A stretch of 64,000 bases of DNA from positions 2,820-66,819 of the forward strand of contig CAYPSA010000005.1 in assembly GCA_964413645.1 (NCBI GenBank), read 5' to 3'. Shown in pieces: positions 5,617 to 63,649 of this stretch (positions within the stretch are counted from its first letter, which is position 1; every line of letters begins with the position of its first letter). The DNA comes from an uncultured Gammaproteobacteria bacterium (GTDB lineage: Bacteria; Patescibacteriota; Microgenomatia; UBA1406; HO2-37-13b). A program made the position numbers and the translations under genes. A model generated the notes under the pieces. That model worked only from the letters and a program-made list of their open reading frames with translations. It was not told the origin of the DNA and did not search any database.

Positions 5617-5645
5617 GACCTGAGCGAAGTTGAAGAGTTATGAGT

Positions 5646-16100: not shown

Positions 16101-16479
16101 CAATAATAAAACCACTAGCATCGGTAAGTTTTCCCGAGAAAGAAAGAGTGCGTGTATTGGGTTTATATGCGGCACTAAATCCAATGGTTGATGGGGTTTG
16201 TTGCGTCCTTGCAATTGCGCCTCCAATAATCAGTAATAATACAAGACTTCCACCGACAAGTGCGTAAAGTGCACCCTTATGCTGTATGGTAGAACGTGGC
16301 GCCACTTTAAAGCCTGAACTTTGAGGAGTTAGTGTTGTTGAATTTTCTTCAGTAGATTGCTTTTTCTTCATCCACCCGGTAAAGCTATTCGCTAAAAGCA
16401 CTCGTCGCTCAACCTCATCAGGAGTCAAGCCCTGGCTTTCAAGCTTCAGTCGATATTGATTAATACTAGGTACGCTCAT
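13165..16479 (-). CDS. 1,104-aa membrane-anchored fibre/adhesin-like protein, paralog of the giant protein
   Basis: Short cytoplasmic N-terminus, then a TM helix (ALYALVGGSLVLLLIIGGAI). Has the G[IL]GTxxPxxxL.V motifs (FGIGTTNPTFNLDVAGTTRIGGDL; IGLGTIAPTNKLTVV). The middle region (FAEYF...VLGVVS...GQLPVKV...GDPL) and the C-terminal ~130 aa ending FNWWIIN parallel the giant ORF's end (FDWFIVN). Confidence 0.8.
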   Translation of the reverse strand: MSVPSINQYRLKLESQGLTPDEVERRVLLANSFTGWMKKKQSTEENSTTLTPQSSGFKVAPRSTIQHKGALYALVGGSLVLLLIIGGAIARTQQTPSTIGFSAAYKPNTRTLSFSGKLTDASGFIIANKTKVVLSLYNDALGGKQVYSSGVCTVTPNMQGAFQTTIGGACGSPIREDVFTTNPQLYLGIKIGNDTEMQPRTPISSRNATSSDAPTGNLAVNDEGEIVLSTETAAIRSTLESANFAITSARGVLLQSSLDGDVTLSATESGQIKFLVGGEQVSTIKAGGELAITGNIIPTNTGIQDLGSSNNRFNALYVENIYPGLSGISGYLKREGNTLSTTNAGDEFILGSSVASLARIRLSPYTSDKSWINAGNFGIGTTNPTFNLDVAGTTRIGGDLTLGASGSQKVNFNASTLSFANASGIALPGNTVNALAFQTDLLSMDTKNNRIGLGTIAPTNKLTVVDSQANISTLKVENTNSDASSKGLLIKLGFTGGGNTSNEFITFTKGNDEVQGKIQSNGASGVSFTSGGGDFAEYFLKDSSLDSKSTSLWNAGTLICLVADGMVRPCDTTYTNVLGVVSNNAAFVGNSKGEDDEKYTLVGLVGQLPVKVSSASGTITSGDPLSYSTIPGEVARATQNMRIVGFAQEAYNGTGTKTIRATIQPGYYEVTQKNQLAYDRTVLGTNRESLRELISRFSNLIAKTIQVEEKISSPVVETGTLVSKTILPAPKSDLVIDLAPEESESSSSASTNISSSGPLAQLIIQGFNNQTVASFDALGNATLSGTLQAQNVETQSVEAQNVNTQVLTSSTLTTQQASVSGTLVANRIEASNITDIEKMVNELKNAPLPDARLYDKDTSVFNSIDPIDEITVLNKASFYDASVANSLLAGSVSIRDDTITGLAFELKLTALASINLLDGAVMIARDGTLTTKGEVIAQKGVRTNHLSPINKGDNLKVSLSEDASQSASLQILNDEAREVASINASGSAFFEGGIGVNTFIADSGDVQNKSSLTAAISTNAQSAGTGEIPVGKSNIIIYNEKLSKNSLVYLTSTSKTENQPVYVSEKKTCDVQITETDQACRSYFVVTIDSPIKTAATFNWWIIN

Positions 16480-38928: not shown

Positions 38929-39765
<837 letters not shown>

Positions 39766-48900: not shown

Positions 48901-51900
48901 ACAAGATAAATGGCACGGACGTGATTTCTGCTTCAGGGCTAGGAGTAGGAGTTACCGCTTCCTCACTCACCAGTCTTGGTACACTCGGAAATCTGACGGT
49001 CGCCGGAACATCAGCTCTTAATGGCGGTATTACGTTTGATAACTCAACTGATACAATCTCAGCCTTCACTGCCGGTGGAACCATTGACTTGGCAACTAAT
49101 CTCATAACCAACATTGGAAACGCAGGAACCGACTTCAGTGCCGGTGGAGGACTTACACTTGCTGGTGCATTCACGGCAAACAGCACAACCGCTCTTAACG
49201 GAGCCACTACTCTTGGAGACGCTGCTGCTGATACCGTAACCAGTAATGCGGGAGTATGGTCTTTCACCAATGCAACAACGGTTGATCTTGCCGATAGCTC
49301 ACGAGGAGCACTTAACTTTGAAGGTGGTTTACTTGCTCTTGACACTCTCAATTCACGCATCGGTATTGGAACAACAACTCCAACTCAAAAATTAGATGTT
49401 GCGGGAAACGTAAACATATCATCAGGATCAACATACAAAATCAATGGAACGGATGTCCTTTCAGCCTCGGGACTTGGTGTGGGAGTAACCGCCTCATCTT
49501 TGACCAGCCTTGGTACACTTGGAAATGTAACAGTAACCGGAACATCAGCCTTAAATGGCGGAATCACGTTTGATAGTGCAACCGATACAATCTCAGCTTT
49601 CACAGCTGGTGGTACCATCGACTTGGCAACTAACTTAATTACCAACATTGGCAACTCCGGTACCGACTTTATTGCTGGTGGAGGACTTACACTCGCCGGA
49701 GCATTCACCGCAAACAGCACATCTGCCTTAAATGGAGCCGTTACACTCGGAGATGCTTCATCCGACATGGTAACCAGTAATGCTGGAGTATGGTCTTTCA
49801 CAAATGCAACAACAGTGGATCTTGCAGACAACGCTCGAGGAGCACTGAATTTCGAAGGTGGTCTGTTAGCTCTGGACACTCTCAATTCACGAATTGGTAT
49901 CGGCACAACAACTCCAACACAAAAACTTGATGTTGTAGGAAATGTGAATGTATCTTCTGGCTCAACCTACAAGATCGCTGGAACAGACGTTCTTTCAGGT
50001 AATACTTTAGGTGCAGGCATAACAGCCTCATCACTCACATCCGTCGGCACTCTCACCAACCTTGGAGTAGGCAACTCGGGATCATTCGGTGGAGGCCTGT
50101 TAGTTGGTGGACAAACACTAACCAACTTTACCGGAAATGGTGTAACACTCTCATCTGGAGCTCTTACCGTCAATCTCACCACCTCTGGAACCACCGGATC
50201 CACATCATCCAATTCTGGACTTGAGGTTGGAAGTGGGGGGCTTACACTCCTCAAAGGCTGTACCGATGGAGAACTTCTCAAATACACCGACGCTTCCGGC
50301 TGGGCATGTGCAACTGACACCGATACTAACACCGGAAATATTTCAGGATTCACCGATTTCGGAAGTATTGTCGCACTCACCACCACCGCAGATAACTTAG
50401 GAGTCGGAACATCTTCCCCAACTAACAAGCTCTCGGTAGTCGGTACCGCAGACATCTCAGGAAATCTTGGAGTTGGTACAACGACTCCAGCATACAAGCT
50501 TGATGTTGCAGGTTCAGCCAACCTTTCAACTGGTTCCACCTACAAAATAAACGGTACCGACGTACTCTCAGCCTCAGGTCTTGGTGTTGGAGTAACCGCC
50601 TCATCTTTGACCAGCCTTGGTACACTTGGAAATGTAACAGTCACCGGAACATCAGCCTTAAACGGTGGAATCACCTTCGACAGCTCAACCGACACCATTT
50701 CAGCTTTCACTGCCGGTGGAACCATTGATCTTGCAACCAATCTCATTACTAACATTGGTAATGCTGGAACCGACTTTGTTGCTGGTGGAGGTTTAACTCT
50801 CGCAGGAGCATTCACCGCAAACAGTACCTCTGCCTTAAACGGAGCTACTACTCTTGGAGATGCTGCTGCTGATACCGTAACCAGCAACGCTGGAGTGTGG
50901 GTATTTAGTAATGCAACAACGGTTGATCTTGCGGATAGTTCACGAGGAGCACTGAATTTCGAAGGTGGCTTACTTGTGCTCGATACTCTTAATAGTAGAA
51001 TTGGAATCGGCACTACAACTCCAACTCAAAAACTCGATGTCGTCGGAAATGTGAATGTATCCTCAGGTTCTACCTACAAAATCAATGGAACCGATGTTCT
51101 TTCCGGAAACACACTAGGATCAGGAGTAACCGCATCTTCTCTCACATCAGTCGGTACACTCACCAACCTTGGAGTAGGGAACTCGGGTGCATTTGGTGGA
51201 GGCCTGTTAGTTGGTGGACAAACGCTTACCAACTTCACCGGAAATGGTGTAACACTTTCATCTGGAGCGTTAACGGTGAATCTAACCGCATCAGGAACAA
51301 CCGGATCCACATCATCCAACTCAGGGTTGGAAGTTGGAAGTGGAGGACTTACGCTCCTTAAGGGCTGTTCGGATAATGAATTACTCAAGTATACCGATGC
51401 TTCTGGATGGGCTTGTGCGGTTGATATTGATACGACAGGTGCAAACGTTTCAGGATTCACTGATTTCGGAAGTATTGTCGCACTCACCACCACCGCAGAT
51501 AACCTAGGTGTTGGAACATCTTCTCCAACCAACAAACTCTCAGTCGTCGGTAACGCAGATATCTCTGGAAATCTTGGAATCGGTACAACCACTCCAGCAT
51601 ACAAACTTGATGTGGCAGGAAACACGAATCTCTCATCAGGATCAACATACAAAATCAACGGAACGGATGTTATCTCAGCCTCTGGTCTAGGAGTAGGAGT
51701 AACCGCCTCATCACTCACCAGTCTTGGAACACTCGGCAACGTAACAGTAACGGGTACTTCAGCCTTAAACGGCGGAATCACGTTTGATAGTGCAACCGAT
51801 ATAATCTCAGCTTTCACTGCTGGTGGAACCATTAATATGGCGACGAATATAATTACTGATATCGGTGATGCCGGAACCGACTTCATTGCCGGTGGAGGAC

Positions 51901-54900
51901 TCACGCTTGCCGGAGCATTCACTGCAAATAGCACGGCGGTACTTAACGGAGCAGTCACTCTCGGAGATGTTGCGGCTGATACCGTAACTGCAAATGCAGG
52001 CGTATGGTCATTTGCAAATGCCACAACGGTAAATCTTGCGGATAGCGCTCGTGGAGCATTAAACTTCGAAGGTGGCTTACTTGCGCTCGACACTCTTAAT
52101 AGTAGAATCGGTATTGGCACAACAACCCCAACAACAACGCTTGATGTCGTCGGCACTGGTAAATTTTCAGGCCTTCTCACTGCCAGCTCAGGATTGTCTA
52201 TAAATTCAGAAACAGTTACCGACTTTAGTGGAAGCGGCATTGTTGTTACGGGAAATGCTTTAACAGTGAATCTAACTTCCTCAGGAACCACCGGATCAAC
52301 CTCATCCAACTCAGGACTTGAGGTTGGATCAGCGGGTCTAACACTTCTTAAAGGCTGTGCCGATGGAGAGATTCTTGAATACACGGACGCAGGTGGTTGG
52401 GCATGTGCGGTTGATTCTGATACTGGAAACATTTCTGGATTCACTGATTTCGGAAGCATCGTCGCACTCACCACCACCGCAGACAACCTCGGAGTCGGAA
52501 CATCTTCCCCAACCAACAAGCTCTCAGTCGTCGGTACTGCAGATATTTCTGGAAACTTGGGAGTTGGTACAACCACTCCTGCATACAAACTTGATGTTGC
52601 GGGTAATACTAATCTCTCATCAGGCTCCACCTACAAAATCAATGGAACCGATGTTCTTTCAGCCTCAGGACTTGGTGTTGGAGTCACGGCCTCATCACTC
52701 ACCAGTCTTGGCACACTCGGAAACGTAACAGTTGCCGGAGTTTCTGCCTTAAACGGTGGAATCACGTTTGACAATTCAACCGACACCATTTCTGCCTTCA
52801 CTCTTGGTGGTACCCAAGACGCAGCAACAAACCTAATCGTTAACATTGGCGACAATGGAACAGACTTCATTGCCGGTGGAGGACTTACCCTTGCAGGAGC
52901 ATTCACCGCAAACAGCACAAGCGCATTAAACGGAGGAGTTACATTGGGCGATGCTTCAGACGACACAGTGACCAGCAACGCCGGAATATGGTCATATGCC
53001 AACTCCACAACCATCGACCTCGTTAACAGTGCTCGAAATGCGCTTAACATCGAAGGCGGACTTCTTTCACTCGATACCCTCAACAGCCGAGTTGGTATTG
53101 GTTCAAGCAGCTCACTTGCCGGACTTGATGTACAAACAACCGCATGGCTTCGAGGAGCAGTTGCAGGTACATCAGGACTATACGTAAACGGATCTGGAAA
53201 TGTAGGTATCGGAATCACCATGCCGCAAAACAAACTCGATGTATCTGGTTCTGTGGCATTTGGCTCATTACCAACCAATCAGCTTCCACAAGCAAATTCT
53301 GCTTACTTCTCAGGAAATGTTGGAATTGGAACAACTAATCCACAAGCAAATCTTAATGTAGCTAACAACTCCCTTTCTACCGGAACCGGTCTATTGGTCA
53401 GCTCAACATCAACATCATTCTCATCGGGCAAACTTGCAAGTATCGATTGGAGTCCATCATCAGCAACTACAGCAACGGGCGATGTACTTTCGGTTAATGT
53501 AGGTGTCAATGGAGTAGTCGGTAACATTTTCAATGTTATGGATGGTGGTTCGAGTGTCTTCTCGGTTAGTCAAAGTGTTATAACGGCAGGATTGCCAGTC
53601 AACTTTACAGCACCTGGCGATGTCGGAATCGCCTATGACTTATTATTTAGCAACCAAACAGCTTCAAATATTAAATCATATGGGCCGCTTACCATCGAAT
53701 CAGGCGAAAGTTTCGAATCGAATTATTTGACGCTCAAAACATACAATTCTGGACAAATAGTCTTTGATGCACCAGGAGGAATTCTATTGGCACAAGCACA
53801 GCCATGGACACTAGCTACTAGCGCACAAGCACTTAATATCCAAAATGGATTGCTTAATCTCGACACAACGAATAGTCGAGTTGGAATCGGAACAAGTAAT
53901 CCACTTGCTGGTTTTGATGTTCATAATACCGCATGGCTTCGAGGAGCAGCTTCAGGTGCATCAGGACTGTATGTAAATGGATCGGGAAATGTAGGGATTG
54001 GAACAAGCGCACCTAAGAATAAATTAGATGTTTCCGGATCAGTCGCATTTGGCTCGTTACCAACCAATCCACTTCCACAAGCCAACAGTGCCTATTTCTC
54101 AGGAAATCTCGGTATTGGAACAACAAATCCTGGATATAAGTTAGACGTAGCCGGTACAGTAAACATATCATCAGGCTCCACCTACAAAATCAATGGAACC
54201 GATGTTCTTTCAGCCTCAGGACTTGGTGTTGGAGTCACGGCCTCATCACTCACCAGTCTTGGCACACTCGGAAACGTAACAGTTGCCGGAGTTTCTGCCT
54301 TAAACGGTGGAATCACGTTTGACAATTCAACCGACACCATTTCTGCCTTCACTCTTGGTGGTACCCAAGACGCAGCAACAAACCTAATCGTTAACATTGG
54401 CGACAATGGAACAGACTTCATTGCCGGTGGAGGACTTACCCTTGCAGGAGCATTCACCGCAAACAGCACAAGCGCATTAAACGGAGGAGTTACATTGGGC
54501 GATGCTTCAGACGACACAGTGACCAGCAACGCCGGAATATGGTCATATGCCAACTCCACAACCATCGACCTCGTTAACAGTGCTCGAAATGCGCTTAACA
54601 TCGAAGGCGGACTTCTTTCACTCGATACCCTCAACAGCCGAGTTGGTATTGGTTCAAGCAGCTCACTTGCCGGACTTGATGTACAAACAACCGCATGGCT
54701 TCGAGGAGCAGTTGCAGGTACATCAGGACTATACGTAAACGGATCTGGAAATGTAGGTATCGGAATCACCATGCCGCAAAACAAACTCGATGTATCTGGT
54801 TCTGTGGCATTTGGCTCATTACCAACCAATCCGCTTCCACAATCCAACAGTGCCTATTTCTCAGGAAATGTAGGTATTGGAACAACCAACCCAGGATTTG

Positions 54901-57110
54901 GATTGGAAGTAAATGGAACAGCACGAGTTAATGGAGCGGTAACATTTGGAGATGCATCGAGTGATACGGTTACATCAACAGCAGGTGCATGGACATTCTC
55001 AAATGCATCAACATTCGATCTTGCAAATTCTCAATTAAATGCGCTTAACTTTGAATCAGGCTTGCTCAATATCGACACATCTGGTTCTACCGTTGGTATT
55101 GGAACAACTGTTCCTACTGCAAAATTAAGTGTGCTACAAACCGGATCAGCAAACGCATTCTTAGTACAAGATGTTGCGAGCGACACAACACCATTTGTAA
55201 TCGATGCAAGCGGACGAGTTGGAATTGGAACCACCACTCCAAGTGACAGTATATCATTGGAAGTCGTAGGCGACACGCGCTTGGGTGGTAATATTTCTCG
55301 AAATGCCCATGGTTCTAACAATCTTAATGACCAGGGAAGCATTTCGCCAAACGGTGGGTTTGAAGGTCTAACGGCATCAGGCGCAAACTTGCCTGATGAC
55401 TGGGCTGATGTCGATTCAGGAGCTACCGTAAGTACAACCCAAGTTGCACAAGGAGACCGATCATTGCGCATGTCATCATTAAACGATGAAGTTATGAGTA
55501 CGTGTTATCCGGCGACTGGTGGAAATACCTTGAACTTTAATATGTCTTCCTATTTAACATCAGGTGATACTACGCGATTACGTATGAGAGAATATACAAC
55601 ACTTGCAAACTGTACGGCGAATACAAGTCCTACAACAACCGACACAACTGCATGTACGGGCGTTGGAGCTTCACCAGTATGGGCTACATGTAGCGCTGCT
55701 CAAGTACTTGTTGCTGGAACACGATGGATGCGTACTGGAATATATTTTCATACGAAATCAAGTACGCACGTATATGTAGACTCAGTTAGAGTGACCCAAA
55801 ACGCACTTACAAATGGTCTTGATTTAGCAGAAACATATCCTGCGGCAAAAGCTGATGGAATTAAAGTTGGTGAGATCGTATCGTTTGGAAGAGCTAACAA
55901 GCAAGTCGGCGCAGACGTGAATAATGTCACTCGATCATCAAAAGCATATGATAATTTGGCCTTTGGAATTGTTTCTACTAAGCCAGGAATCGTGCTCGAT
56001 GACCAAGGTGCAAGTGAGAAAGTTCAAGTAGCCCTTAAAGGTCGAGTTCCGGTGCTCGTTTCAACTGAAAATGGACCAATCAAAATCGGCGATCCAATTG
56101 TTGCTTCAAGCAAGCCGGGTGTGGGTATGAAAGCTACTAAAGCTGGAAAGATATTAGGATACGCCATGACCGAGTTTGTAAATACTGATCCATCAGTAAT
56201 TGATCAAGTTATCGTATTCGTTGAAAGCTCATGGTTTGATCCAAGCTTGGCTTTGGGAAGCACGGGCGATGTTAATGGAGTGGCTTCAACTTATGCTAGC
56301 TTAAGCCCAAATAATACTGATGACGTTGCAAAAGACTTGGTTAAAATTAGTAGTGATTTTGAAAAGCTTACCCTTTCGATGAATGCGCTTGATAGTAAGG
56401 TTGAAGGTGTGGAGGGTGAAGTTGGTAAACTCAGCAGTGAAAATACATCGCTTACCGCTCGACTTTCAAGTCTTGAAGATAAATTAAAGCAACTTGAAGA
56501 AGGTGGAGCAGTTCTAGGAATTGGATCGACTAATCCACAGCTTTCAGGCGAATCTATTGCAAGTGCTTCAGCCGCTCTTGATGACGCCGATTCACTTATT
56601 GACGGCACAGAGTCTAAGCTCTCTGAGCTCACCGTGACTGGCTTGGCTAAACTTAACAACTTGAATGTAATTGGCGACGCCACATTTGGAATGATGCAAA
56701 TCGTGGGAATTGATCCAAATGATGGATCGAACATTGACACTATAGCCGGTCCATTACGACTACAAGCAACTGCACTTAATGATTTAGATATTATGAATGG
56801 CAAAGTTTTGGTAACAACCGATGGAAATATTATTACAAAAGGCCAAATTACTGCTAAAAAATTGAACATTAGTACTCAAGATGATGCTGAAGATAACAGT
56901 GTCGGTGTGGCTAAATTGCTTAAAGGAACCAAAAAGGTAATTGTGAAGACAACTGCAATCACTGCAAAGTCACATGTGTTTGTAACGCCAAAGACATTGC
57001 TCGATTATCCATTAGTTGTAACTGTTCTTGAGCCTCAAACCTCATTTACGGTTGAAGTGAAATCGAGTGAAGATAAAGATGTCGAATTCGACTGGTTCAT
57101 TGTGAACTAA
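39930..57110 (+). CDS. Giant (5,726-aa) membrane-anchored, Gly/Thr/Ser-rich mosaic-repeat fibre/adhesin-like surface protein
   Basis: One uninterrupted 17,181-nt ORF with an N-terminal hydrophobic anchor (ILAGLVLLVSSTVASL). About 14.6 kb consists of shuffled repeat modules. The non-repeat C-terminus has a jelly-roll/CBM-like segment, a coiled coil and a conserved terminal domain ending FDWFIVN. Confidence 0.85.
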   Translation: MNHFFQQTASILAGLVLLVSSTVASLPEKFHDFTSKFSYKPPVTSPAKKKTAQSQKSFPAVLAATIDRTKTGVTFTIPAFFKDLVTLDSSLEVNGPSTFNDKVTLTNQDLDLGTGELTASNVLYGLTAGNGILISEGQTPEIKLDLNVVSSISGRTGDVDLEEGSGISIDGLEITNSDKGSAQNIFKTFSVSGQSDIVANSNTSKLTFVAGEGTVLTTDATAKTLTITSNFNNSGWVDEGAIIRLSGISDSVGIGTSSPANKLSVVGNTDISGNLGIGTTTPAYKLDVAGNANLSSGSTYKINGADVLSASGLGVGVTASSLTSLGTLGNVTVTGTSALNGGITFDNATDTISAFTAGGTINLANNLITNVGNAGTDFTASGGLTLAGLLTASSGISLDAETVTDFSGNGIVVTSNSLFVNLTTSSNTGATSSNSGLEVGTAGLTLLKGCSDGELLKYTDAGGWACSTDIDTTSGSASGFTDFGSIVALITSADNLGVGTSSPTNKLSVVGTADISGNLGVGTTTPGYKLDVAGNANLASGFTYKVNGNDVLSGTTLGVGVTSSSLTQLGALGNLTVTGAIVGNGGLTLAAGQTLNVNSDAITDLTGNGIVLSGGTLTVGLTSSGTTGSSSSNSGLEVGSAGLTLLKGCSDNELLKYTDASGWACAIDIDTTGANLAGFTDFGSIVALTTTADNLGVGTSSPTNKLSVVGTADISGNLGIGTTAPAYKLDVAGNVNLSTGSTLKINGTDVLSASGLGVGVTASSLTSLGTLGNVTVTGVSALNGGITFDSTTDTISAFTAGGTINMATNIITDIGNSGTDFTGAGGLNLAGLLTALSGVSINSETVTDFSGSGISVSGNALTVNLTSSGTTGSTSSNSGLEVGSGGLTLLKGCTDGELLKYTDAGGWACATDTDTNTNTSGFTDFGSIVALTTTADNLGVGTSSPTNKLSVVGNTDISGNLGVGTTTPAYKLDVAGSTNLSSGSTYKINGTDVLSASGLGVGVTASSLTSVGPLGNLTVTGAIVGNGGLTLATGQTFTMNGDAFTDLTGSGIIISGNALTIGLTTSGTTGSTSSNSGLEVGSAGLTLLKGCTDGELLKYTDAGGWACSADIDTDTNSAGFTDFGSIVALTTTADSVGIGTSSPANKLSVVGTADISGNLGIGTTTPAYKLDVAGSANLSTGSTYKINGTDVLSGSTLGSGITASSLTSVGTLTNLGVGNSGAFGGGILVGGETLTDFTGNGVTLSSGALTVNLTSSGTTGSTSSNSGLEVGSAGLTLLKGCTDGELLKYTDAGGWACATDSNSGNVSGFTDFGSIVALTTTADNLGVGTSSPTNKLSVVGTADISGNLGIGTTTPAYKLDVAGNTNLSSGSTYKINGTDVLSASGLGVGVTASSLTSLGTLGNLTVTGAIVGNGGLTLAAGQTLNFNSDAITDLTGNGIVLSGGTLTVGLTSSGTTGSTSSNSGLEVGSGGLTLLKGCIDGELLKYTDAGGWACATDTDTNTGNISGFTDFGSIVALTTTADNLGVGTSSPTNKLSVVGTADISGNLGIGTTTPAFKLDVAGSANLSSGSTYKINGTDVLSGNTLGSGITASSLTSVGTLTNLGVGNSGSFGGGLLVGGQTLTNFTGNGVTLSSGALTVNLTTSGTTGSTSSNSGLEVGSGGLTLLKGCTDGELLKYTDASGWACAADTDTDTNTSGFTDFGSIVALTTTADNLGVGTSSPTNKLSVVGTADISGNLGVGTTTPAYKLDVVGSANLSAGSTYKINGTDVLSASGLGVGVTASSLTSLGTLGNVTVTGTSALNGGITFDSSTDTISAFTAGGTIDLATNLITNIGNAGTDFVAGGGLTLAGAFTANSTSALNGATTLGDAAADTVTSNAGVWSFTNATTVDLADSSRQALNFESGLFNLDTLNGRVGIGTTTPTQKLDVVGNVNVSSGSTYKIAGTDVLSGNTLGAGITTSSLTSVGTLTNLGVGNSGSFGGGILVGGETLTDFTGNGVTLSSGALTVNLTTSGTTGSTSSNSGLEVGSGGLTLLKGCTDGELLKYTDASGWACATDTDTNTGNISGFTDFGSIVALTTTTDNLGVGTSSPTNKLSVVGTADISGNLGVGTTTPAYKLDVAGNTNLSSGSTYKINGTDVLSGNTLGSGITASSLTSVGTLTNLGVGNSGAFGGGLLVGGQTLTNFTGNGVTLSSGALTVNLTTSGTTGSTSSNSGLEVGSGGLTLLKGCSDGEILKYTDAGGWACAADVDNDTNSSGFTDFGSIVALTTTADNLGVGTSSPTNKLSVVGTADISGNLGVGTTTPAYKLEIIGTGRLSGLLTASAGVSINSETVTDFSGSGIAVTGNALTVNLATSGTTGSTSSSSGLEVGAGGLTLLKGCNDGEILKYTDAGGWACVADVDNDTNNSGFTDYGSIVALTTTADSVGIGTSSPANKLSVVGSADVSGSFGIGTTAPAYNLEVIGTGRVSGLLTASSGVSINGETVTDLSGSGIVLTGNALTVNLTNSGTTGSTSSNSGLEVGSGGLTLLKGCSDGEILKYTDAGGWACAADVDNDTNSSGFTDFGSIVAMTTSADNLGVGTSSPTNKLSVVGTADISGNLGVGTTIPAYKLDVVGSANLSSGSTYKINGTDVISASGLGVGVTASSLTSLGTLGNVTVAGVSALNGGITFDNSTDTISAFTAGGTIDLATNLITNIGNAGTDFVAGGGLTLAGAFTANSTSALNGAVTLGDASSDTVTSNAGVWSFTNATTVDLADNARGALNFEGGLLALDTLNSRIGIGTTTPTQKLDVVGNVNVSSGSTYKINGTDVLSGNTLGAGITASSLTSVGTLTNLGVGNSGSFGGGLLVGGQTLTNFTGNGVTLSSGALTVNLTTSGTTGSTSSNSGLEVGSGGLTLLKGCTDGELLKYTDAGGWACAADTDTDTNTSGFTDFGSIVALTTTADNLGVGTSSPTNKLSVVGNADISGNLGVGTTTPAYKLDVAGNTNLSSGSTYKINGTDVISASGLGVGVTASSLTSLGTLGNLTVAGTSALNGGITFDNSTDTISAFTAGGTIDLATNLITNIGNAGTDFSAGGGLTLAGAFTANSTTALNGATTLGDAAADTVTSNAGVWSFTNATTVDLADSSRGALNFEGGLLALDTLNSRIGIGTTTPTQKLDVAGNVNISSGSTYKINGTDVLSASGLGVGVTASSLTSLGTLGNVTVTGTSALNGGITFDSATDTISAFTAGGTIDLATNLITNIGNSGTDFIAGGGLTLAGAFTANSTSALNGAVTLGDASSDMVTSNAGVWSFTNATTVDLADNARGALNFEGGLLALDTLNSRIGIGTTTPTQKLDVVGNVNVSSGSTYKIAGTDVLSGNTLGAGITASSLTSVGTLTNLGVGNSGSFGGGLLVGGQTLTNFTGNGVTLSSGALTVNLTTSGTTGSTSSNSGLEVGSGGLTLLKGCTDGELLKYTDASGWACATDTDTNTGNISGFTDFGSIVALTTTADNLGVGTSSPTNKLSVVGTADISGNLGVGTTTPAYKLDVAGSANLSTGSTYKINGTDVLSASGLGVGVTASSLTSLGTLGNVTVTGTSALNGGITFDSSTDTISAFTAGGTIDLATNLITNIGNAGTDFVAGGGLTLAGAFTANSTSALNGATTLGDAAADTVTSNAGVWVFSNATTVDLADSSRGALNFEGGLLVLDTLNSRIGIGTTTPTQKLDVVGNVNVSSGSTYKINGTDVLSGNTLGSGVTASSLTSVGTLTNLGVGNSGAFGGGLLVGGQTLTNFTGNGVTLSSGALTVNLTASGTTGSTSSNSGLEVGSGGLTLLKGCSDNELLKYTDASGWACAVDIDTTGANVSGFTDFGSIVALTTTADNLGVGTSSPTNKLSVVGNADISGNLGIGTTTPAYKLDVAGNTNLSSGSTYKINGTDVISASGLGVGVTASSLTSLGTLGNVTVTGTSALNGGITFDSATDIISAFTAGGTINMATNIITDIGDAGTDFIAGGGLTLAGAFTANSTAVLNGAVTLGDVAADTVTANAGVWSFANATTVNLADSARGALNFEGGLLALDTLNSRIGIGTTTPTTTLDVVGTGKFSGLLTASSGLSINSETVTDFSGSGIVVTGNALTVNLTSSGTTGSTSSNSGLEVGSAGLTLLKGCADGEILEYTDAGGWACAVDSDTGNISGFTDFGSIVALTTTADNLGVGTSSPTNKLSVVGTADISGNLGVGTTTPAYKLDVAGNTNLSSGSTYKINGTDVLSASGLGVGVTASSLTSLGTLGNVTVAGVSALNGGITFDNSTDTISAFTLGGTQDAATNLIVNIGDNGTDFIAGGGLTLAGAFTANSTSALNGGVTLGDASDDTVTSNAGIWSYANSTTIDLVNSARNALNIEGGLLSLDTLNSRVGIGSSSSLAGLDVQTTAWLRGAVAGTSGLYVNGSGNVGIGITMPQNKLDVSGSVAFGSLPTNQLPQANSAYFSGNVGIGTTNPQANLNVANNSLSTGTGLLVSSTSTSFSSGKLASIDWSPSSATTATGDVLSVNVGVNGVVGNIFNVMDGGSSVFSVSQSVITAGLPVNFTAPGDVGIAYDLLFSNQTASNIKSYGPLTIESGESFESNYLTLKTYNSGQIVFDAPGGILLAQAQPWTLATSAQALNIQNGLLNLDTTNSRVGIGTSNPLAGFDVHNTAWLRGAASGASGLYVNGSGNVGIGTSAPKNKLDVSGSVAFGSLPTNPLPQANSAYFSGNLGIGTTNPGYKLDVAGTVNISSGSTYKINGTDVLSASGLGVGVTASSLTSLGTLGNVTVAGVSALNGGITFDNSTDTISAFTLGGTQDAATNLIVNIGDNGTDFIAGGGLTLAGAFTANSTSALNGGVTLGDASDDTVTSNAGIWSYANSTTIDLVNSARNALNIEGGLLSLDTLNSRVGIGSSSSLAGLDVQTTAWLRGAVAGTSGLYVNGSGNVGIGITMPQNKLDVSGSVAFGSLPTNPLPQSNSAYFSGNVGIGTTNPGFGLEVNGTARVNGAVTFGDASSDTVTSTAGAWTFSNASTFDLANSQLNALNFESGLLNIDTSGSTVGIGTTVPTAKLSVLQTGSANAFLVQDVASDTTPFVIDASGRVGIGTTTPSDSISLEVVGDTRLGGNISRNAHGSNNLNDQGSISPNGGFEGLTASGANLPDDWADVDSGATVSTTQVAQGDRSLRMSSLNDEVMSTCYPATGGNTLNFNMSSYLTSGDTTRLRMREYTTLANCTANTSPTTTDTTACTGVGASPVWATCSAAQVLVAGTRWMRTGIYFHTKSSTHVYVDSVRVTQNALTNGLDLAETYPAAKADGIKVGEIVSFGRANKQVGADVNNVTRSSKAYDNLAFGIVSTKPGIVLDDQGASEKVQVALKGRVPVLVSTENGPIKIGDPIVASSKPGVGMKATKAGKILGYAMTEFVNTDPSVIDQVIVFVESSWFDPSLALGSTGDVNGVASTYASLSPNNTDDVAKDLVKISSDFEKLTLSMNALDSKVEGVEGEVGKLSSENTSLTARLSSLEDKLKQLEEGGAVLGIGSTNPQLSGESIASASAALDDADSLIDGTESKLSELTVTGLAKLNNLNVIGDATFGMMQIVGIDPNDGSNIDTIAGPLRLQATALNDLDIMNGKVLVTTDGNIITKGQITAKKLNISTQDDAEDNSVGVAKLLKGTKKVIVKTTAITAKSHVFVTPKTLLDYPLVVTVLEPQTSFTVEVKSSEDKDVEFDWFIVN
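52617..53280 (+). repeat. 664-bp perfect direct repeat, copy A (partner 54168-54831; offset 1551 bp = 517 codons)
   Basis: A line-by-line comparison of 52617-53280 with 54168-54831 shows no mismatch. The flanks diverge at 52616/54167 and at 53281/54832. Identical 63-aa track ORFs at 52996 and 54547 confirm the match. Confidence 0.9.
54168..54831 (+). repeat. 664-bp perfect direct repeat, copy B
   Basis: See copy A. Confidence 0.9.
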
Positions 57111-57160: not shown

Positions 57161-60100
57161 ATGGGAAAATTTATTACACATTTTAAAGCGTATTTGCGAA
57201 ACTTCAAGAGTAAATCTCGGCGTCCGATAATAGTAATAATCTCATTTTTGATTATCGCAACCGGTTTTTTATTATATACAAACAACGCCAAAGCAGTTGA
57301 TTGGTGGAAAGGTGGGGGTGGCGCATGGGGAGCTCGCAAACAACTTACGGTTACGAATAACTCATCCGCGACGCTTTCTGCAAATACAACGGTAGTCATA
57401 ACAATTGACACGAAGAGTCTGGTTAATTCAGGTAAATTACGCCGTGACTGTTCAGATTTACGTATTTTATATCAGCCATCTTCATCAACCACTACCGAAC
57501 TTACTCGGCATCTGACTTTTGCTCCTACCGAAACAGGGCAAGGAACATGTATTACGAGTTCGGCAACGAAGGTATATTTCAATTTGCAATCATCACTCTC
57601 ATCGTCAGGTTCAACAACCGACTATTATTTGTATTACAAAAACCCAAGCGCCTCCACTCCAACGTCTACCGATAATGCATTTGATATTTCATCAATCAAC
57701 GCAACGCTCGTATGTCCATTTGATGGAACAACCACGTGCGCTGCAGGTGAAACACCAAGTACAGAAACCGGTGCCATTCGATATAGTGGAGGAAAGAGCG
57801 CACTTATTTTTGATCATGTAAATGACTATGTTGAATATTCTTTAGCATCAGGAGTAGGTACTGCGCTTACAAGCAAAGTATTTACTATTGAAACATGGAT
57901 ATATGTTAATAATATTACTGAGCCGTTTGGAATTCTTGGAGACACAGTTGGGAGCAATGACGCGTTTAAATTGCAATCATTGTCGGGTACTGATATTTCA
58001 TTTCGAGGGGAAGGATCGAGCACGGGTATCGTTTTAGATTGTGCAAATGCCTTTACATCAACCGGATGGTACCATGTTGCGGTTGTGTCAACCGGACCTT
58101 CAGCATATCTATATAAAAATGGAACTCAATGTAGTTCCGATTCAATTGTCGGGGAAACATATTCTCAGGGGACCGTTCATAGAATAAGCTGGGGAGGATA
58201 TTTTGGCGTACGTTATATGGCGGGTATTATCGATGAATATCGATTCAGTAACACCATTCGATACACGTCAAATTTCACTCCAAGCACAGCTCCCTTTGTA
58301 CGTGATGCGAATACGATGGTATTATTTCATTTTGATGAAAATGGAACCGACCCTCGACAATCGGGCAAAGCAATCGACGATTCGGGTAATAATGTTCATG
58401 GAACAATTAGTGGAGCCCAGTATGTGGACGGTCTTGTTGGTGTAGACGCTTCGTCGGTAGATATTGGAAAAGTATCGGGTCAATCATTCGGAAGCCACGA
58501 GGGAGTCTTTGTCGAAGAAGGTACGACCAACAAAATTACAAACCCTTCATTTGAAAATGCTACGTATGATACAAATTGGACAACTGGGGCAAATCTTACC
58601 GCAACCTCAAACGCAACTGCTCCTTATTATAAATTTGGCGTAAAATCGGCAAAGTTAGTTGCCTCAGCAAGTGCTATTTCGGGAACGAGTAATATGTTTA
58701 CAACAAACATAAACGTAGGAAGCAGTGCTACTCATGGATTTTCTGCATTTGTGTACGATGCAACTTCTGGAAATGTTGGCGGAACTGTGTCATCCAGTAT
58801 TGCAAAAATTGTGTTTCAAGGAGTCGCCCAAACGACAACATATACCGATGTGGGTGGTGGTTGGTGGCGATTAAGCTATGCAGCTAGTGCGGCAGGAGCA
58901 CAAGAATTTGGAATTGAGCCGCAAGTGTCGAAAACTATCTATGTTGATGCTGCTCAACTTGAAGCTAAGGCGACGCAATTGGCCGGTTATTCTACATCGT
59001 ATGCGGATGGCTCATTGGGATCAGGATATGCGTGGACTGGAACAGCAAACAATAGTACCAGTACTCGTACTGCAGGCGATCTGCGTTATGCCACGTCGGG
59101 AAATATTTCAGTCAGTGCGGGTACATTTAGTGCATGGGTTTGGTATCCATCATATTATTCAAGCTGTAGCGGCGCTCATCAGGGAATTTTATATACAAAT
59201 GGGGCAAATCCACTTTTTATGGGGCAAAATTGCGGAACAGCCTGGTTTTCGGTTAATGGAACCAATGGTGGAGCGGCATCGGGTACTATGCCTACATATG
59301 GGGCAAATAAATGGCACCATTACGTTGGTACATGGAATGGGTCGGCACTAACTTTTTATATTGATGGGACTGCCCAGACTCCAGGTTCGTATACTGCAAC
59401 ACCAACAGCAACTTCTATTATACTGAATACAGATATAGGAGGGAATACCGGAATCGACACAGTCACTTTATCTGATTTGCGAATCTACGATACCGCACTT
59501 ACTTCTACCCAAGTAACCGACTTGTATCAGTCCGGATTGGTTGGACATAGTCAGGGACTGCAGGTTGATGCCTTCGGCGATACTTCGGGAGAAGACCCAG
59601 TAAGCATTTATCACATGGATGAAGCTCAGGGAACAAGCGTAAACGATAGCACTGTGCAGGCAAATCATTTTACCCTCGGCACCGGTTCATCAGCTCCGAG
59701 TTGGGAGACAACCAATAACGTATCAGGTGCAGCCAATCCCCGAGGGACCAATTTAAAATTCGATGGTTCAAATGATTATATCTATCGGAATGATGACTCC
59801 GATTTTAACCCCGGAACCGGCTCATTTTCTGTTTCTGGATATTTTAGGCACCCAAGCACCATTTCAGGAACCGATACCCTCATAACGCGGTACAGTAGTG
59901 CTGGGTATAAGGTATATATGAATTCCTCAGGGTACCTGTGTTTTGGTATCGACGATGATTCTACCTGGGGACCCGATGACTCGGCATGTTCAACATCGAG
60001 TCAGGGTTCGTTTGCTGATTCTAAATGGCATACATTTACAGCAGTAAAAACGAGTACGACGTCTATTGCGCTCTACATAGACGGGATCCTTGTAGGTAGC

Positions 60101-63100
60101 GACTCATCGCTTGCAGCTACCGCCACACTCAACGCAGGCTCGAGTAGCATTATGTATATGGGAATTGACGCAGACTTTGCCTCAAATCCATGGGCCGGGA
60201 ATTTAGATGAGGTGTATTTTTATCCGTATGCGCGATCAGCCGCACAAATCAAAGCGAATACGGGTGGTGCAACGCTTGGGGCTTCTACCGATCCGCTTGA
60301 TAAGGGGCTGGTTGGATATTGGAAGATGGACGAAAGTTCTGGCACAACAACTAGTGATTCGAGTGGAAATTTATATACAGGAACGCTTGGAGTTGGCGCA
60401 TCCGCACCAACATGGACGAATGGTAAATTTGGTGGAGGACTATCATTTGATGGCACTTCTGATTTGGTAAATTTATCTACGATTACTAAACCTACTACAA
60501 GTTTTCCTATAACATTATCTTTTTGGGTTAATCCAACAACCACTTCGCCGGTTGGTATTTTTGACTCTGCTCCTGGTCAAGGGAATGTATTAAGAAATTA
60601 TTCCGCAGGCAATATAGAATGGTGGAATGGCCAACCTCAGGTATCTTTGGGCCTATCTTCATCAGTATGGCAACATGTCACTGTTGTTTACGATCATGAC
60701 GGGACAAATAGAATTCTGCGGTATTACAAGAATGGCACTCTTACAAGTTCGAGTAGTTTTGCGGGTACAAATGAATATAATTGGTCTAATTTTACTTTAG
60801 GAAATATTAACGGAGGTGATGCTGGGTGGTTTTCTGGAAGTTTAGATGAATTCAGAGTATACAACCGTGCGCTTTCGCCTGCCGAAGTACAACAGTTGTA
60901 TAATTACGCCCCGGGGCCCGTGGGGCATTGGAAAATGGATGAAGGGAATGGATTAAGTGCTTTTGACAGTTCGGGAAATGGAAATACCGGCACGCTTACT
61001 AACGGACCTGTATGGACTAATGCAAAATTAGCTGGAGGCGTACAGTTTGATGGAAGCAATGATTCAGTGCTAGTGACAGATGCTAATAGTCTTGATACTC
61101 CTGCGGGCATTACAACATCAGCGTGGGTTAATTTTAGCACTTTAGCATCAGGAGGTGATTACGGATTTATGTCCAAATGGACCAGCGGTTCGGGTTGGTT
61201 TATCGAACCAAATTATTCAGGAACTAGTTGGAGAATATATTTTGTTTTTAGTGATGCAACGGCAAATAGCTGGGTTTTTGACCCGGGAATTTCAACCACC
61301 AATCGCTGGTACCATGTTTCAATAACGTACGACAAAACAAGTATGAAATTTTATACCGATGGTGTCCTTGTTGGGTCCACTGCCTTGACTAAAGATTTGA
61401 TTACTAATTCGCAACCACTCTATCTTGGCTATAGCAATGGAAGCGGTGGTGGAGCACATTATTTGACCGGGAAAATGGATGATGTTCGTATTTATAACTA
61501 TGCACGATCATCGGCTCAAGTAATCCAAGACATGAACGCAGGCCATCCATTGGGTGGTTCTCCGGTGGGGAGTCAAGTTGCCCATTGGAAACTCGACGAA
61601 GGCTATGGTACAACAGCTAATGATTCATCAATTAATGGAAACTCACTCACGCTTTCGTCTGCTACTGCTGCATGGACAAATGCGGGAAAGTTTGGTAAAG
61701 CATGGAATGGAGATGGCGCTCTATACATGAGTCGAGCAGATGATGCGGACTTTGATTTTACCGCAGTTGAGGATTTTGCAATAAGTGGATGGGTAAAGTC
61801 TGATTCAGCCAGTAACCCGGGAGCAACAGAATACGTCGTAAACAAAGCAAATGCCACTACCGCTGGATATGCTGTATATTTCAATACCTCTGGAAACCTT
61901 TGTTTTGGAATTGACGACGATACTACCTGGGGCCCTGACATTGCAAGTTGTAGCACCACCGATCTGTATGACGCCACCTGGCATCATTTTAGTGCGATGC
62001 GCGATTATTCGGGGACGCTGAAAACATTTATATATGTTGATGGAATAAGTCGTGATAACGATACCGATAGTACAAGCGCAACTTTCGCAAATTCACTCTC
62101 ACTTTACGTGGGTGACCGTGATGGCACCAACAATGGTGATGAATTTACTGGGGATATTGACGAAGTTAAAATTTATCGAGGCGCATTAACACCTGCAGAA
62201 ATTAAGATTGACTATAATCGTGGGCAGAGTTTAGTTTTAGGTTCTGTTTCAAACAATTCTACATATGCTCCAAATGCGGCAAACCAAGAATATTGTGTGC
62301 CGGGGGATAGCACAAGCTGTGCAGCGCCGGTCGGAGAGTGGAGGCTAGATGAGCGAACAGGGTCGACGGTTAATGATACATCAGGGAATGGATATTCTGG
62401 TACCCTGACCTTGGGTCCATCTTGGACTAAAGGTAAAATTGGAGCAGCTTTAAATTTTGATGGCTCTGATGACTATGTTGATTTCGGAACGGCAGCGGGT
62501 CTTGATTTAACATCATCAATGACATTCAGTGCTTGGATTAATTCGAGTTCATTTGCATCGCAGCAAAGAGTATTCCAACGCAGAGGTGCGGGTGGATATG
62601 GATTCACTATACTTAATAGCACTACTATACGATTTACCCAGTTTGGAGTAGTGGACAAAGACATAACAGTTTCAGCCCTTTCAGCGAATACGTGGTACCA
62701 TGTTACTTGGGTATTTAATGATACCGCCGATACGGTTACTGTTTATTTGAATGGGCAAAGTGTCGGCAGTACTGCTCTGGCAAGTGCTATTGTGAGTGTG
62801 CCGGCAAGTTCGAATATCATGGGTGGAACTGGTAATATGTTCAGTGGCAAGATAGACCATGCGACTTTATACAACTACGCCCGAACTGCTTCTCAAGTTG
62901 CCTGGGACTATAATCGCGGAGCGCCGATTGCCCACTATCGTCTCGATGAATGTGCAGGAACCGTTGCCAACGACGCATCAGGAAACGGCTACACGGGTAC
63001 AATTACGATTGGAGCAAGTGGTACAAATACGAGTGCGGGAAATTGTACGAGCGGTACAAGTTCCGAAGCATGGTATAACGGAGTCGCTGGTAAATTCAAT

Positions 63101-63649
63101 AGTAGTTTGAAATTTGATGGAACGGATGACTACGTAAGTGTTACCGACAATAGTAATCTCGAAAATGCAGTCATGTCGCTTTCAGCCTGGATTTATACCA
63201 GCGCAGGATTCCCAAGTCAAACTGGACCCCTTGGCAAAAGAATTACATCGAGTGAATATATACAGTACTCTTTCAGTGTATCCAGTAATACTTTTTACTG
63301 GCTTCAATCTGAAGCTGGCTCAAGCTGGAACACTCTGGTATCTACCCCTTCCAATACCATATCGGCTGGATGGCATCATTACGTGGGTACTAATAATGGA
63401 ACTACAGCCCGGCTATATATTGATGGAAAAGAAGTTGGAACTGCCGATTCATCACCAGCTACAACACTTGCCGCAAGTACCGACCCCTTTATAATCGGAG
63501 AGCAGCGAGTTGGTAGCAGCGATAGTTACTTTACTGGTCAAATTGATGATGTTCGAATATATAACTACGCTCTAACCACGACGCAAATAAAGAACATCAT
63601 GAACGGCGACTTTGCCGTTCGATACGCACCAGCAACAGGGCAGCCGTAA
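57161..63649 (+). CDS. 2,162-aa membrane-anchored DUF2341 + multi-LamG (concanavalin A-like lectin) repeat protein
   Basis: N-terminal TM helix (IIVIISFLIIATGFLLY). DUF2341-like start (WWKGGGGAWGARKQLTVTNNS...DCSDLRILY). A jelly-roll/CBM-like segment follows (NPSFENATYDTNW...IYVDAAQLEAKA). Eight LamG-type units begin W[KR][ML]DE..G....D.SGNG..GTL and end [IL]D[ED]VR[IV]YN.A[LR]....[IV] (e.g. LDEFRVYNRALSPAEVQQLYN; IDDVRIYNYALTTTQIKNIMN). Confidence 0.8.
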   Translation: MGKFITHFKAYLRNFKSKSRRPIIVIISFLIIATGFLLYTNNAKAVDWWKGGGGAWGARKQLTVTNNSSATLSANTTVVITIDTKSLVNSGKLRRDCSDLRILYQPSSSTTTELTRHLTFAPTETGQGTCITSSATKVYFNLQSSLSSSGSTTDYYLYYKNPSASTPTSTDNAFDISSINATLVCPFDGTTTCAAGETPSTETGAIRYSGGKSALIFDHVNDYVEYSLASGVGTALTSKVFTIETWIYVNNITEPFGILGDTVGSNDAFKLQSLSGTDISFRGEGSSTGIVLDCANAFTSTGWYHVAVVSTGPSAYLYKNGTQCSSDSIVGETYSQGTVHRISWGGYFGVRYMAGIIDEYRFSNTIRYTSNFTPSTAPFVRDANTMVLFHFDENGTDPRQSGKAIDDSGNNVHGTISGAQYVDGLVGVDASSVDIGKVSGQSFGSHEGVFVEEGTTNKITNPSFENATYDTNWTTGANLTATSNATAPYYKFGVKSAKLVASASAISGTSNMFTTNINVGSSATHGFSAFVYDATSGNVGGTVSSSIAKIVFQGVAQTTTYTDVGGGWWRLSYAASAAGAQEFGIEPQVSKTIYVDAAQLEAKATQLAGYSTSYADGSLGSGYAWTGTANNSTSTRTAGDLRYATSGNISVSAGTFSAWVWYPSYYSSCSGAHQGILYTNGANPLFMGQNCGTAWFSVNGTNGGAASGTMPTYGANKWHHYVGTWNGSALTFYIDGTAQTPGSYTATPTATSIILNTDIGGNTGIDTVTLSDLRIYDTALTSTQVTDLYQSGLVGHSQGLQVDAFGDTSGEDPVSIYHMDEAQGTSVNDSTVQANHFTLGTGSSAPSWETTNNVSGAANPRGTNLKFDGSNDYIYRNDDSDFNPGTGSFSVSGYFRHPSTISGTDTLITRYSSAGYKVYMNSSGYLCFGIDDDSTWGPDDSACSTSSQGSFADSKWHTFTAVKTSTTSIALYIDGILVGSDSSLAATATLNAGSSSIMYMGIDADFASNPWAGNLDEVYFYPYARSAAQIKANTGGATLGASTDPLDKGLVGYWKMDESSGTTTSDSSGNLYTGTLGVGASAPTWTNGKFGGGLSFDGTSDLVNLSTITKPTTSFPITLSFWVNPTTTSPVGIFDSAPGQGNVLRNYSAGNIEWWNGQPQVSLGLSSSVWQHVTVVYDHDGTNRILRYYKNGTLTSSSSFAGTNEYNWSNFTLGNINGGDAGWFSGSLDEFRVYNRALSPAEVQQLYNYAPGPVGHWKMDEGNGLSAFDSSGNGNTGTLTNGPVWTNAKLAGGVQFDGSNDSVLVTDANSLDTPAGITTSAWVNFSTLASGGDYGFMSKWTSGSGWFIEPNYSGTSWRIYFVFSDATANSWVFDPGISTTNRWYHVSITYDKTSMKFYTDGVLVGSTALTKDLITNSQPLYLGYSNGSGGGAHYLTGKMDDVRIYNYARSSAQVIQDMNAGHPLGGSPVGSQVAHWKLDEGYGTTANDSSINGNSLTLSSATAAWTNAGKFGKAWNGDGALYMSRADDADFDFTAVEDFAISGWVKSDSASNPGATEYVVNKANATTAGYAVYFNTSGNLCFGIDDDTTWGPDIASCSTTDLYDATWHHFSAMRDYSGTLKTFIYVDGISRDNDTDSTSATFANSLSLYVGDRDGTNNGDEFTGDIDEVKIYRGALTPAEIKIDYNRGQSLVLGSVSNNSTYAPNAANQEYCVPGDSTSCAAPVGEWRLDERTGSTVNDTSGNGYSGTLTLGPSWTKGKIGAALNFDGSDDYVDFGTAAGLDLTSSMTFSAWINSSSFASQQRVFQRRGAGGYGFTILNSTTIRFTQFGVVDKDITVSALSANTWYHVTWVFNDTADTVTVYLNGQSVGSTALASAIVSVPASSNIMGGTGNMFSGKIDHATLYNYARTASQVAWDYNRGAPIAHYRLDECAGTVANDASGNGYTGTITIGASGTNTSAGNCTSGTSSEAWYNGVAGKFNSSLKFDGTDDYVSVTDNSNLENAVMSLSAWIYTSAGFPSQTGPLGKRITSSEYIQYSFSVSSNTFYWLQSEAGSSWNTLVSTPSNTISAGWHHYVGTNNGTTARLYIDGKEVGTADSSPATTLAASTDPFIIGEQRVGSSDSYFTGQIDDVRIYNYALTTTQIKNIMNGDFAVRYAPATGQP

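Follow-up and report, generated by a model that had tools for sequence, protein, structure and literature searches.

A phage-type assembly cassette at the C-terminal end of a giant protein from a CPR bacterium

Introduction

The locus studied here raises the question of which part of a giant protein would touch a target cell and which part would serve to build the protein itself. The window, i.e. the whole stretch of 64,000 nucleotides that was analysed (contig CAYPSA010000005.1 of assembly GCA_964413645.1, positions 2,820 to 66,819 of the forward strand), encodes a protein of 5,726 residues, hereafter the giant, in which a series of fibre repeats is followed by a non-repeat C-terminal region. 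The original prediction, made from the letters alone, had divided this region into a jelly roll resembling carbohydrate-binding modules (CBM) of the CBM4/9 type, a 'GVVS...GDP' block with a counterpart in a 1,104-residue paralogue, a coiled coil and a shared terminal domain, and had taken it for a distal receptor-binding module. All four features were found where they had been placed, by AlphaFold2 modelling, BLASTP, sequence profiles and heptad analysis (Table 1). The last three belong to a phage-type assembly cassette made of a Peptidase_G2-like barrel, a coiled coil and a K1-lyase_C sandwich, and we consider it probable that this cassette trimerises a fibre resembling phage tail fibres and then cuts itself off between L5297 and D5298, with the CBM-like domain as the mature tip. 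Bacteria of the Candidate Phyla Radiation (CPR), to which the source organism belongs, live attached to other microbes, and little is known of how they recognise and hold their hosts.

The 'GVVS...GDP' block is a Peptidase_G2-like barrel

We investigated the fold and the relatives of the 'GVVS...GDP' block. A core of about 145 residues, common to about 70 homologues, starts with an invariant D-x-A-E motif and continues with G-[IV]-V-S and GRVPVKV..NGPIK.GD.[IL]T.S..PG.[AG]MKATKAG. The single-domain AlphaFold2 model is a beta-barrel with a predicted local distance difference test (pLDDT) of 90.7 and a predicted template-modelling (TM) score of 0.85. When this model was compared with the PDB by Foldseek, only phage proteins were returned: gp12 of phage phi29 was the highest listed (3suc, TM 0.61; 3gqh_A, TM 0.60/0.55) and the other fold matches were phage capsid cement or decoration proteins. 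The best match in BFVD was a 'preneck appendage protein barrel', with an E value of 1.5e-9, a root-mean-square deviation (rmsd) of 2.0 A and 29% identity. In the same way, the family profile retrieved phi29 gp12 from the PDB sequences (hmmsearch, E 0.006), and its alignment by hhalign to gp12 residues 682-854 had a probability of 92% and an E value of 6e-7. The Pfam family PF11962 (Peptidase_G2, 'IMC autoproteolytic cleavage domain') was matched by 16 of the 40 aligned family members, with a best E value of 2e-7, and the other 24 had no Pfam Peptidase_G2 match. A further PDB match, to the grappling-hook protein GhpA of Aureispira (E 0.0096, repeated 'NGPICFGDTL' strands), was set aside as a short-motif resemblance and not homology.

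The giant and the auto-chaperone domain D4 of gp12 (PF11962; 3GQH, 3SUC) have in common the beta-barrel, a 'D-F/L-A-E-Y' start at the first residue of the released fragment, the second motif 'G-[IV]-[IV]-S' and a position C-terminal to a fibre or spike, which is trimeric in gp12. The D-x-A-E of the family aligns with residue 1 of 3GQH, in 'DFAEYFE', and D5298 and E5301 of the giant align with D692-F-A-E695 of gp12. As mature gp12* comprises residues 1-691 (PMC6542822), the natural cleavage site in gp12 directly precedes the Asp of this motif. The Asp and the Glu were kept in 40/40 aligned homologues, in 90/90 barrels of the genome set (80 loci from species-representative genomes, with 88 barrel-containing open reading frames, ORFs, found with a 9-sequence subset of the 40-sequence alignment) and in 99/99 barrels of the viral set (80 viral loci from IMG/VR). 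In gp12 these two acids are reported to be catalytic (MEROPS; 2009 work of Xiang and colleagues).

The two systems also differ. The phi29 fragment is 163 residues long and ends the protein, whereas in the giant 276 more residues, which make up the coiled coil, a linker and the K1-lyase_C domain, come after the barrel. Moreover, gp12 is a virion component, whereas the giant is a cellular protein of 5,726 residues with an N-terminal signal or anchor.

The counterpart of the block in the paralogue, which had been read from the sequence, was confirmed at an E value of 2e-8 by BLASTP, and a barrel profile built without either protein found both of them (E 4e-49 for the giant, 8e-25 for the paralogue). 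Residues 512-591 of the paralogue score 29.8 bits against PF11962, for which the curated cutoff is 25. The alignment of the two C-terminal regions, proposed as a check of the prediction, was significant, and the BLASTP matches of giant residues 5000-5726 to the paralogue are collinear.

A coiled coil and a K1-lyase_C sandwich follow the barrel

The heptad-like coiled coil consists of nine uninterrupted heptads, in which 16 of the 19 a/d positions are hydrophobic; no shuffled sequence out of 5,000 was as good. AlphaFold2 modelled the region as a single helix of 66 residues, and a coiled coil after the barrel is found in many homologues. The linker that follows has the look of a segment that folds only within a trimer, judging from its monomer model. 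It includes a conserved block of 42 residues that recurs in nine further family proteins (P0001, P0006, P0008, P0009, P0011, P0038, P0051, P0052 and P0072).

The tail of the giant matches PF24146 (K1-lyase_C) at 28.8 and 35.1 bits, with a curated cutoff of 27, and 9 of 15 homologous tails match it as well. AlphaFold2 gives a terminal beta-sandwich of about 70-85 residues with a pLDDT of about 90-96. That the terminal domain is shared with the paralogue, as had been proposed, is borne out by a tail profile built without these two proteins (E 8e-17 for the giant, 4e-22 for the paralogue) and by a direct comparison of the last 57 residues of the giant (BLASTP, E 2e-3). Its proposed size of about 150 residues is not, as the sandwich is shorter and the 42-residue block is separate from it. 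A homologue search with the last 287 residues alone returned one protein, and the tail domains were recovered from the homologues of longer queries. Sequence searches of the PDB with the terminal domain gave only non-significant matches (antibody Fc, NFAT, DegQ) and did not recover the K1 lyase chain.

The K1 lyase of Klebsiella phage NTUH-K2044-K1-1 likewise carries a PF24146 domain at the C-terminus of a fibre or spike, corresponding to the last ~70 residues of the giant. In its crystal structure, the three C-terminal sandwiches form a dome at the trimer axis, which locks the subunits (PMC8822698). In the lyase the sandwich comes directly after the catalytic beta-helix and is kept in the mature enzyme; in the giant it comes after the G2 barrel and the coiled coil and, if cleavage occurs, would be discarded.

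A putative maturation step and the permanent-cap alternative

From these homologies we infer how the end of the giant may work. The giant would be a surface fibre of the phage-tail-fibre type, presumably a homotrimer, and its last 429 residues (D5298-N5726, about 45 kDa) would be a cassette that acts as a C-terminal intramolecular chaperone. The K1-lyase_C sandwiches, the nine-heptad coiled coils and the Peptidase_G2-like barrels of three chains would associate and set the chains in register, so that the long upstream repeat region could fold. Once the trimer had formed, the Asp and Glu of D-x-A-E would cut between L5297 and D5298, as in phi29 gp12, and the fragment of 429 residues would be released, or at least detached. 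The CBM4/9-like jelly roll would then be left as the distal tip, where it may bind a glycan on a host or partner cell. If the cassette does self-cleave as in gp12, it is the jelly roll that forms the working tip, and not the extreme C-terminus.

The Peptidase_S74 chaperones (K1F endosialidase, pb1 of phage T5, the appendage of GA-1) are C-terminal and trimerising, have a short coiled coil and are self-cleaved after folding (PMC4690869). The logic is the same as the one proposed for the cassette, but the fold is different and the catalytic pair is Ser/Lys; PF13884 (Peptidase_S74) was not matched in Pfam scans of the giant, the paralogue or the homologues.

Several points weigh against the proposed assembly and self-cleavage. 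The giant's own barrel has no PF11962 match in Pfam scans, the hhalign alignment to gp12 spans only the first ~54 columns, and the resemblance to the solved gp12, in sequence and in fold, is modest (E about 1e-3 to 1e-2, TM 0.6). The fold alone implies no proteolysis, since the same fold is found in cement proteins that do not cleave and in the barrel of a small neighbouring ORF that has no D-x-A-E. Release of the gp12 fragment is also reported to need ATP, in the 2009 work of Xiang et al., and an exported protein would lack ATP.

The ATP requirement, the cement proteins and the small-ORF barrel make a permanent cap the chief rival. The cassette would in that case trimerise the fibre and stay uncleaved at its distal end, with the D-x-A-E as a structural element of the first strand of the barrel and with the dome of K1-lyase_C as the actual tip. 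Such a cap would agree with the C-terminal sandwich of the K1 lyase, which belongs to the mature trimer, and with the length of the CPR cassette, which exceeds the phage module by about 300 residues and would be much protein to discard. It would also agree with the capsid cement or decoration proteins (Pam3 gp6, E217 gp24, XM1 gp53, Borrelia BB1 and the base of phi29 gp8.5), which have the same barrel fold (TM 0.42-0.59) and are not cleaved. These are stand-alone capsid proteins, unlike the barrel of the giant; the Pfam models XM1_gp53 and Phage_cement_2 are matched weakly, under their curated cutoffs, by 10-15 of the 40 barrel members. However, the Asp and the Glu stand at the gp12 cleavage position in every aligned, genome and viral barrel, although the CPR and phage barrels are only 28-44% identical, and both acids would not be expected to persist in a purely structural strand. 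The sequences upstream of the motif differ, moreover: the giant and the homologues nearest to it have the jelly roll there, and the others have other segments. On balance we regard a permanent cap as rather unlikely.

The jelly roll is the candidate ligand-binding module

Upstream of the proposed junction, AlphaFold2 modelled a beta-sandwich at residues ~5177-5290 with a pLDDT of 70-89, the leading 'NGGFE...DDW' strands being of low confidence. The resemblance to a CBM4/9-type jelly roll that had been noted in the sequence is supported by the fold search, in which the best PDB neighbours were CBM16, CBM22, CBM4-2, CBM6, CBM61, MAM and Cry domain III (Foldseek E about 1e-3, probability 1.0, TM about 0.5). 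A profile of seven jelly-roll sequences aligned to a genuine CBM_4_9 domain with an hhalign probability of 83% and an E value of 9e-6; searched against the PDB, its top matches, which were not significant, were CBM4-2 and the CBM4 of a laminarinase. The giant's jelly roll had no Pfam match at E<1, CBM_4_9 (PF02018) included, and the homologous segment of protein P0003 scores 15.2 bits against PF02018, under the cutoff of 25.9. As the links to this family are through hhalign and fold only, we call the jelly roll CBM4/9-like and not a member of the family. It has in common with CBM4/CBM9 domains the jelly-roll fold, the 'NGGFE' start and a size of about 150 residues, and it differs from them in lacking the Pfam match and in having a clade-specific pair of Cys residues. 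Both of these residues ('C[FY]P' and 'ANC') are kept wherever the seven jelly-roll homologues cover them, which points to a disulfide bond in a domain outside the cell.

The jelly roll is common only to the closest homologues, P0001-P0005 and P0007, and the other family members have different sequence immediately upstream of D-x-A-E. The region N-terminal to the junction is thus variable and the cassette constant, which is the pattern of modular phage receptor-binding proteins. Its likeness to a CBM makes the jelly roll a credible candidate for ligand binding at the distal end of the fibre.

The expectation of a distal receptor-binding module is therefore plausible for the jelly roll, and not for the other three segments, which form an assembly cassette of phage origin and probably have no part in the mature tip. 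A reading in which the entire non-repeat C-terminus, with the 'GVVS...GDP' block and the terminal domain, is the receptor-binding tip can appeal to the distal position and to the CBM-like fold of the jelly roll. However, the barrel, the coiled coil and the tail come from assembly and trimerisation families and not from binding domains, and they are the conserved part while the sequence upstream of D-x-A-E varies, the opposite of what is usual for receptor-binding regions. This reading is thus very improbable. The fold and profile searches turned up no cell-wall-anchor domain, the finding that had been named as one that would count against the proposal. Most of the C-terminal end is likely to serve in building the fibre, and only the CBM-like domain in binding a target.

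The cassette is widespread in CPR genomes and shorter in viruses

The barrel family comprises at least 30,592 clusters at 50% identity (E<=1e-3), or 24,911 at E<=1e-10, which are mostly from CPR bacteria and include proteins of 4,000-5,800 residues. The homologues of the C-terminal region come nearly all from CPR (Patescibacteria) metagenome bins, and a Candidatus Roizmanbacteria bin is among the genome loci nearest to it (91% identity); the source of the giant is a CPR bacterium related to Roizmanbacteria. Many of the cassette-bearing bins (metagenome-assembled genomes of 0.6-1.6 Mb, loci L001-L080) are titled 'uncultured Gammaproteobacteria bacterium', as is the assembly studied here, and the named ones are almost all CPR; a few of these loci are labelled Bdellovibrio, Thermotogae, Acidoferrum or Nanoarchaeia. 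On bins with such small genomes the gammaproteobacterial titles were taken to be unreliable labels.

In IMG/VR, at least 270 viral contigs encode barrel relatives (tblastn). The viral tail-fibre-like proteins of IMG/VR and BFVD have the same barrel as the giant at the identities given above (rmsd about 2 A), with an invariant motif that usually reads '[YF]ADLAE'. Most of the viral similarity begins at query residue 10, which is the Asp of the motif, and the viral ORFs end 114-130 residues after it, which is the layout of a removable terminal module. The phage module would therefore make up the last ~123 residues of fibre-like proteins, like a chaperone that is discarded. By contrast, the median distance from the Asp to the stop in CPR genomes is about 487 residues, and the giant-type terminal sandwich, present in 32 of the 88 barrel-containing genome ORFs, occurs in none of the 80 viral loci. 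The longer CPR C-termini and the K1-lyase_C tail not found in the viral loci identify the form of ~430 residues seen here as an extended cellular variant. Among cultured phage genomes, tblastn found only structural proteins of PA5oct-like jumbo Pseudomonas phages, over 24% of the query.

Some architectures in the family are unusual. The 150 best-scoring barrel proteins (P0073-P0222) all have two or three tandem barrels, most copies of which keep D-x-A-E, so that a chain would have two potential cleavage sites. Their lengths reach 5,766 residues in P0078, where the barrel has a similar position and the C-terminal region is about 31% identical to that of the giant. Partial Intein_splicing matches were seen in P0013 and P0041, and an N-terminal phage-integrase SAM-like domain in P0052 and, by its precomputed annotation, in P0050; either gene calls have been fused in these proteins or the odd architectures are real.

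Gene setting and neighbouring open reading frames

The fibre repeats upstream of the jelly roll match PHROG families of tail fibres and tail proteins, among them phrog_9942 (5e-10) and phrog_3269 (2e-9), and one or two copies of the repeat unit occur in the paralogue (BLASTP, E 3e-10). With these matches and the recurrence of the unit in the paralogue, the whole giant looks derived from phage fibres. Its N-terminus has a hydrophobic stretch at residues 9-24, as read from the sequence, which could equally be a cleavable signal peptide or a membrane anchor.

Around the gene lie those for the alpha, gamma and beta subunits of an F-type ATP synthase, leucyl-tRNA synthetase, a class I Trp/Tyr-tRNA synthetase, serine hydroxymethyltransferase and an M16 peptidase. 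That the giant is the tail-fibre gene of an integrated or contaminating phage, as the PHROG tail-fibre matches of repeats and cassette and the many viral relatives might suggest, is highly improbable, since these flanks are chromosomal housekeeping genes and thus not a prophage, the ten flanking ORFs examined include no phage gene, the giant has its hydrophobic N-terminal signal or anchor, and the extended K1-lyase_C cassette was seen in genome ORFs and in no viral locus.

The ORF that starts 50 nucleotides 3' of the giant encodes a protein of 2,162 residues with eight Laminin_G_3 (concanavalin-like lectin) domains, which also matches the Toxin_R_bind_N, Sialidase N-terminal and Pentaxin models; it may be another adhesin that shares a transcript with the giant. 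An antisense ORF of 192 residues, wholly within the part of the gene that encodes the coiled coil and the tail, is most likely a chance reading frame, as are other antisense ORFs inside the gene.

The third barrel copy belongs to a small divergent ORF that adjoins the start of the giant gene and encodes a membrane protein with a signal peptide, the barrel and a C-terminal two-helix hairpin. This hairpin has a weak match to subunit c of ATP synthase (PF00137, E 8e-4, 20 bits, under the cutoff of 24), and its helix 2 seems to be without a carboxylate. The ORF stands where atpE would be expected, with a b-like coiled-coil gene and the genes for alpha, gamma and beta downstream of it. It is odd for an extracellular phage-type barrel to be fused to a hairpin resembling subunit c, and an exact-sequence look-up of this ORF gave no match.

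Table 1. Coordinates of the giant protein, its C-terminal segments, the paralogue and neighbouring reading frames, numbered from the first nucleotide of the window
Feature	Nucleotides	Residues	Strand	Basis or remark
Giant-protein ORF	39930..57110	5,726 aa	+	Region studied: last 603 codons (~600 residues)
Fibre repeats ('GIGTTNP..KLDV.G')	53430-55298	4501-5123	+	PHROG matches
Linker, last fibre repeat to jelly roll	55299..55349	5124-5140	+	pLDDT below 50 (AlphaFold2)
CBM4/9-like beta jelly roll	55350..55805	5141-5292	+	AlphaFold2, Foldseek, hhalign
D-L-A-E motif with predicted autocleavage site L5297/D5298	55821..55832	5298-5301	+	Conservation, gp12 alignment
Peptidase_G2-like beta-barrel ('GVVS...GDP' block)	55821..56279	5298-5450	+	Single-domain model, Foldseek, hhalign
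Coiled coil, nine heptads	56316..56513	5463-5528 (heptads 5466-5528)	+	Heptad analysis, AlphaFold2
Beta-rich linker	56616..56888	5563-5653	+	AlphaFold2 (monomer): short strands only, pLDDT 64-83
Conserved 42-aa block within the linker	56736-56861	5603-5644	+	BLASTP to paralogue residues 897-939, E 4e-6
C-terminal beta-sandwich, K1-lyase_C family, ending FDWFIVN	56895..57107	5656-5726	+	PF24146, AlphaFold2
Paralogue	13165..16479	1,104 aa	-	Same cassette, 13168..14880
Paralogue, DFAE motif		534-537	-
Paralogue, barrel	14473-14880		-
Paralogue, conserved block	13663-13791		-
Paralogue, K1-lyase_C-like tail	13168-13464		-
Third barrel copy, without D-x-A-E	39223..39624		-	A1 profile, E 6e-24; in the small ORF
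Small ORF next to the giant gene	38929..39747		-
Antisense ORF	56291..56869	192 aa	-
Downstream Laminin_G_3 protein	57161..63649	2,162 aa	+

Discussion

Peptidase_G2 and K1-lyase_C are already known families. The novelty lies in finding barrel, coiled coil and K1-lyase_C together in a cellular protein, in the place of this combination at the end of CPR proteins of 1,000-5,800 residues, and in the scale on which it occurs. Our literature searches found no paper linking a Peptidase_G2-like module to CPR bacteria. The result is also a record of domains shared between phage receptor-binding proteins and cellular adhesins. Xiang et al. reportedly suggested that bacterial adhesins might mature like gp12.

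The analysis leads to a testable prediction of a maturation step, and it revises the view that binding takes place at the extreme C-terminus. It also offers a rule for reading sequences: where a D-x-A-E barrel is found, the segment just upstream is the probable functional tip of a giant CPR surface protein. Going further, and as a possibility that we put forward only tentatively, CPR bacteria may have co-opted phage tail-fibre blocks extensively and may build giant attachment fibres from them, with an extended, self-cleaving, extracellular and ATP-free Peptidase_G2 chaperone and with swapped tips. If this is true, tens of thousands of surface proteins that lack annotation would have their functional tip at the D-x-A-E junction.

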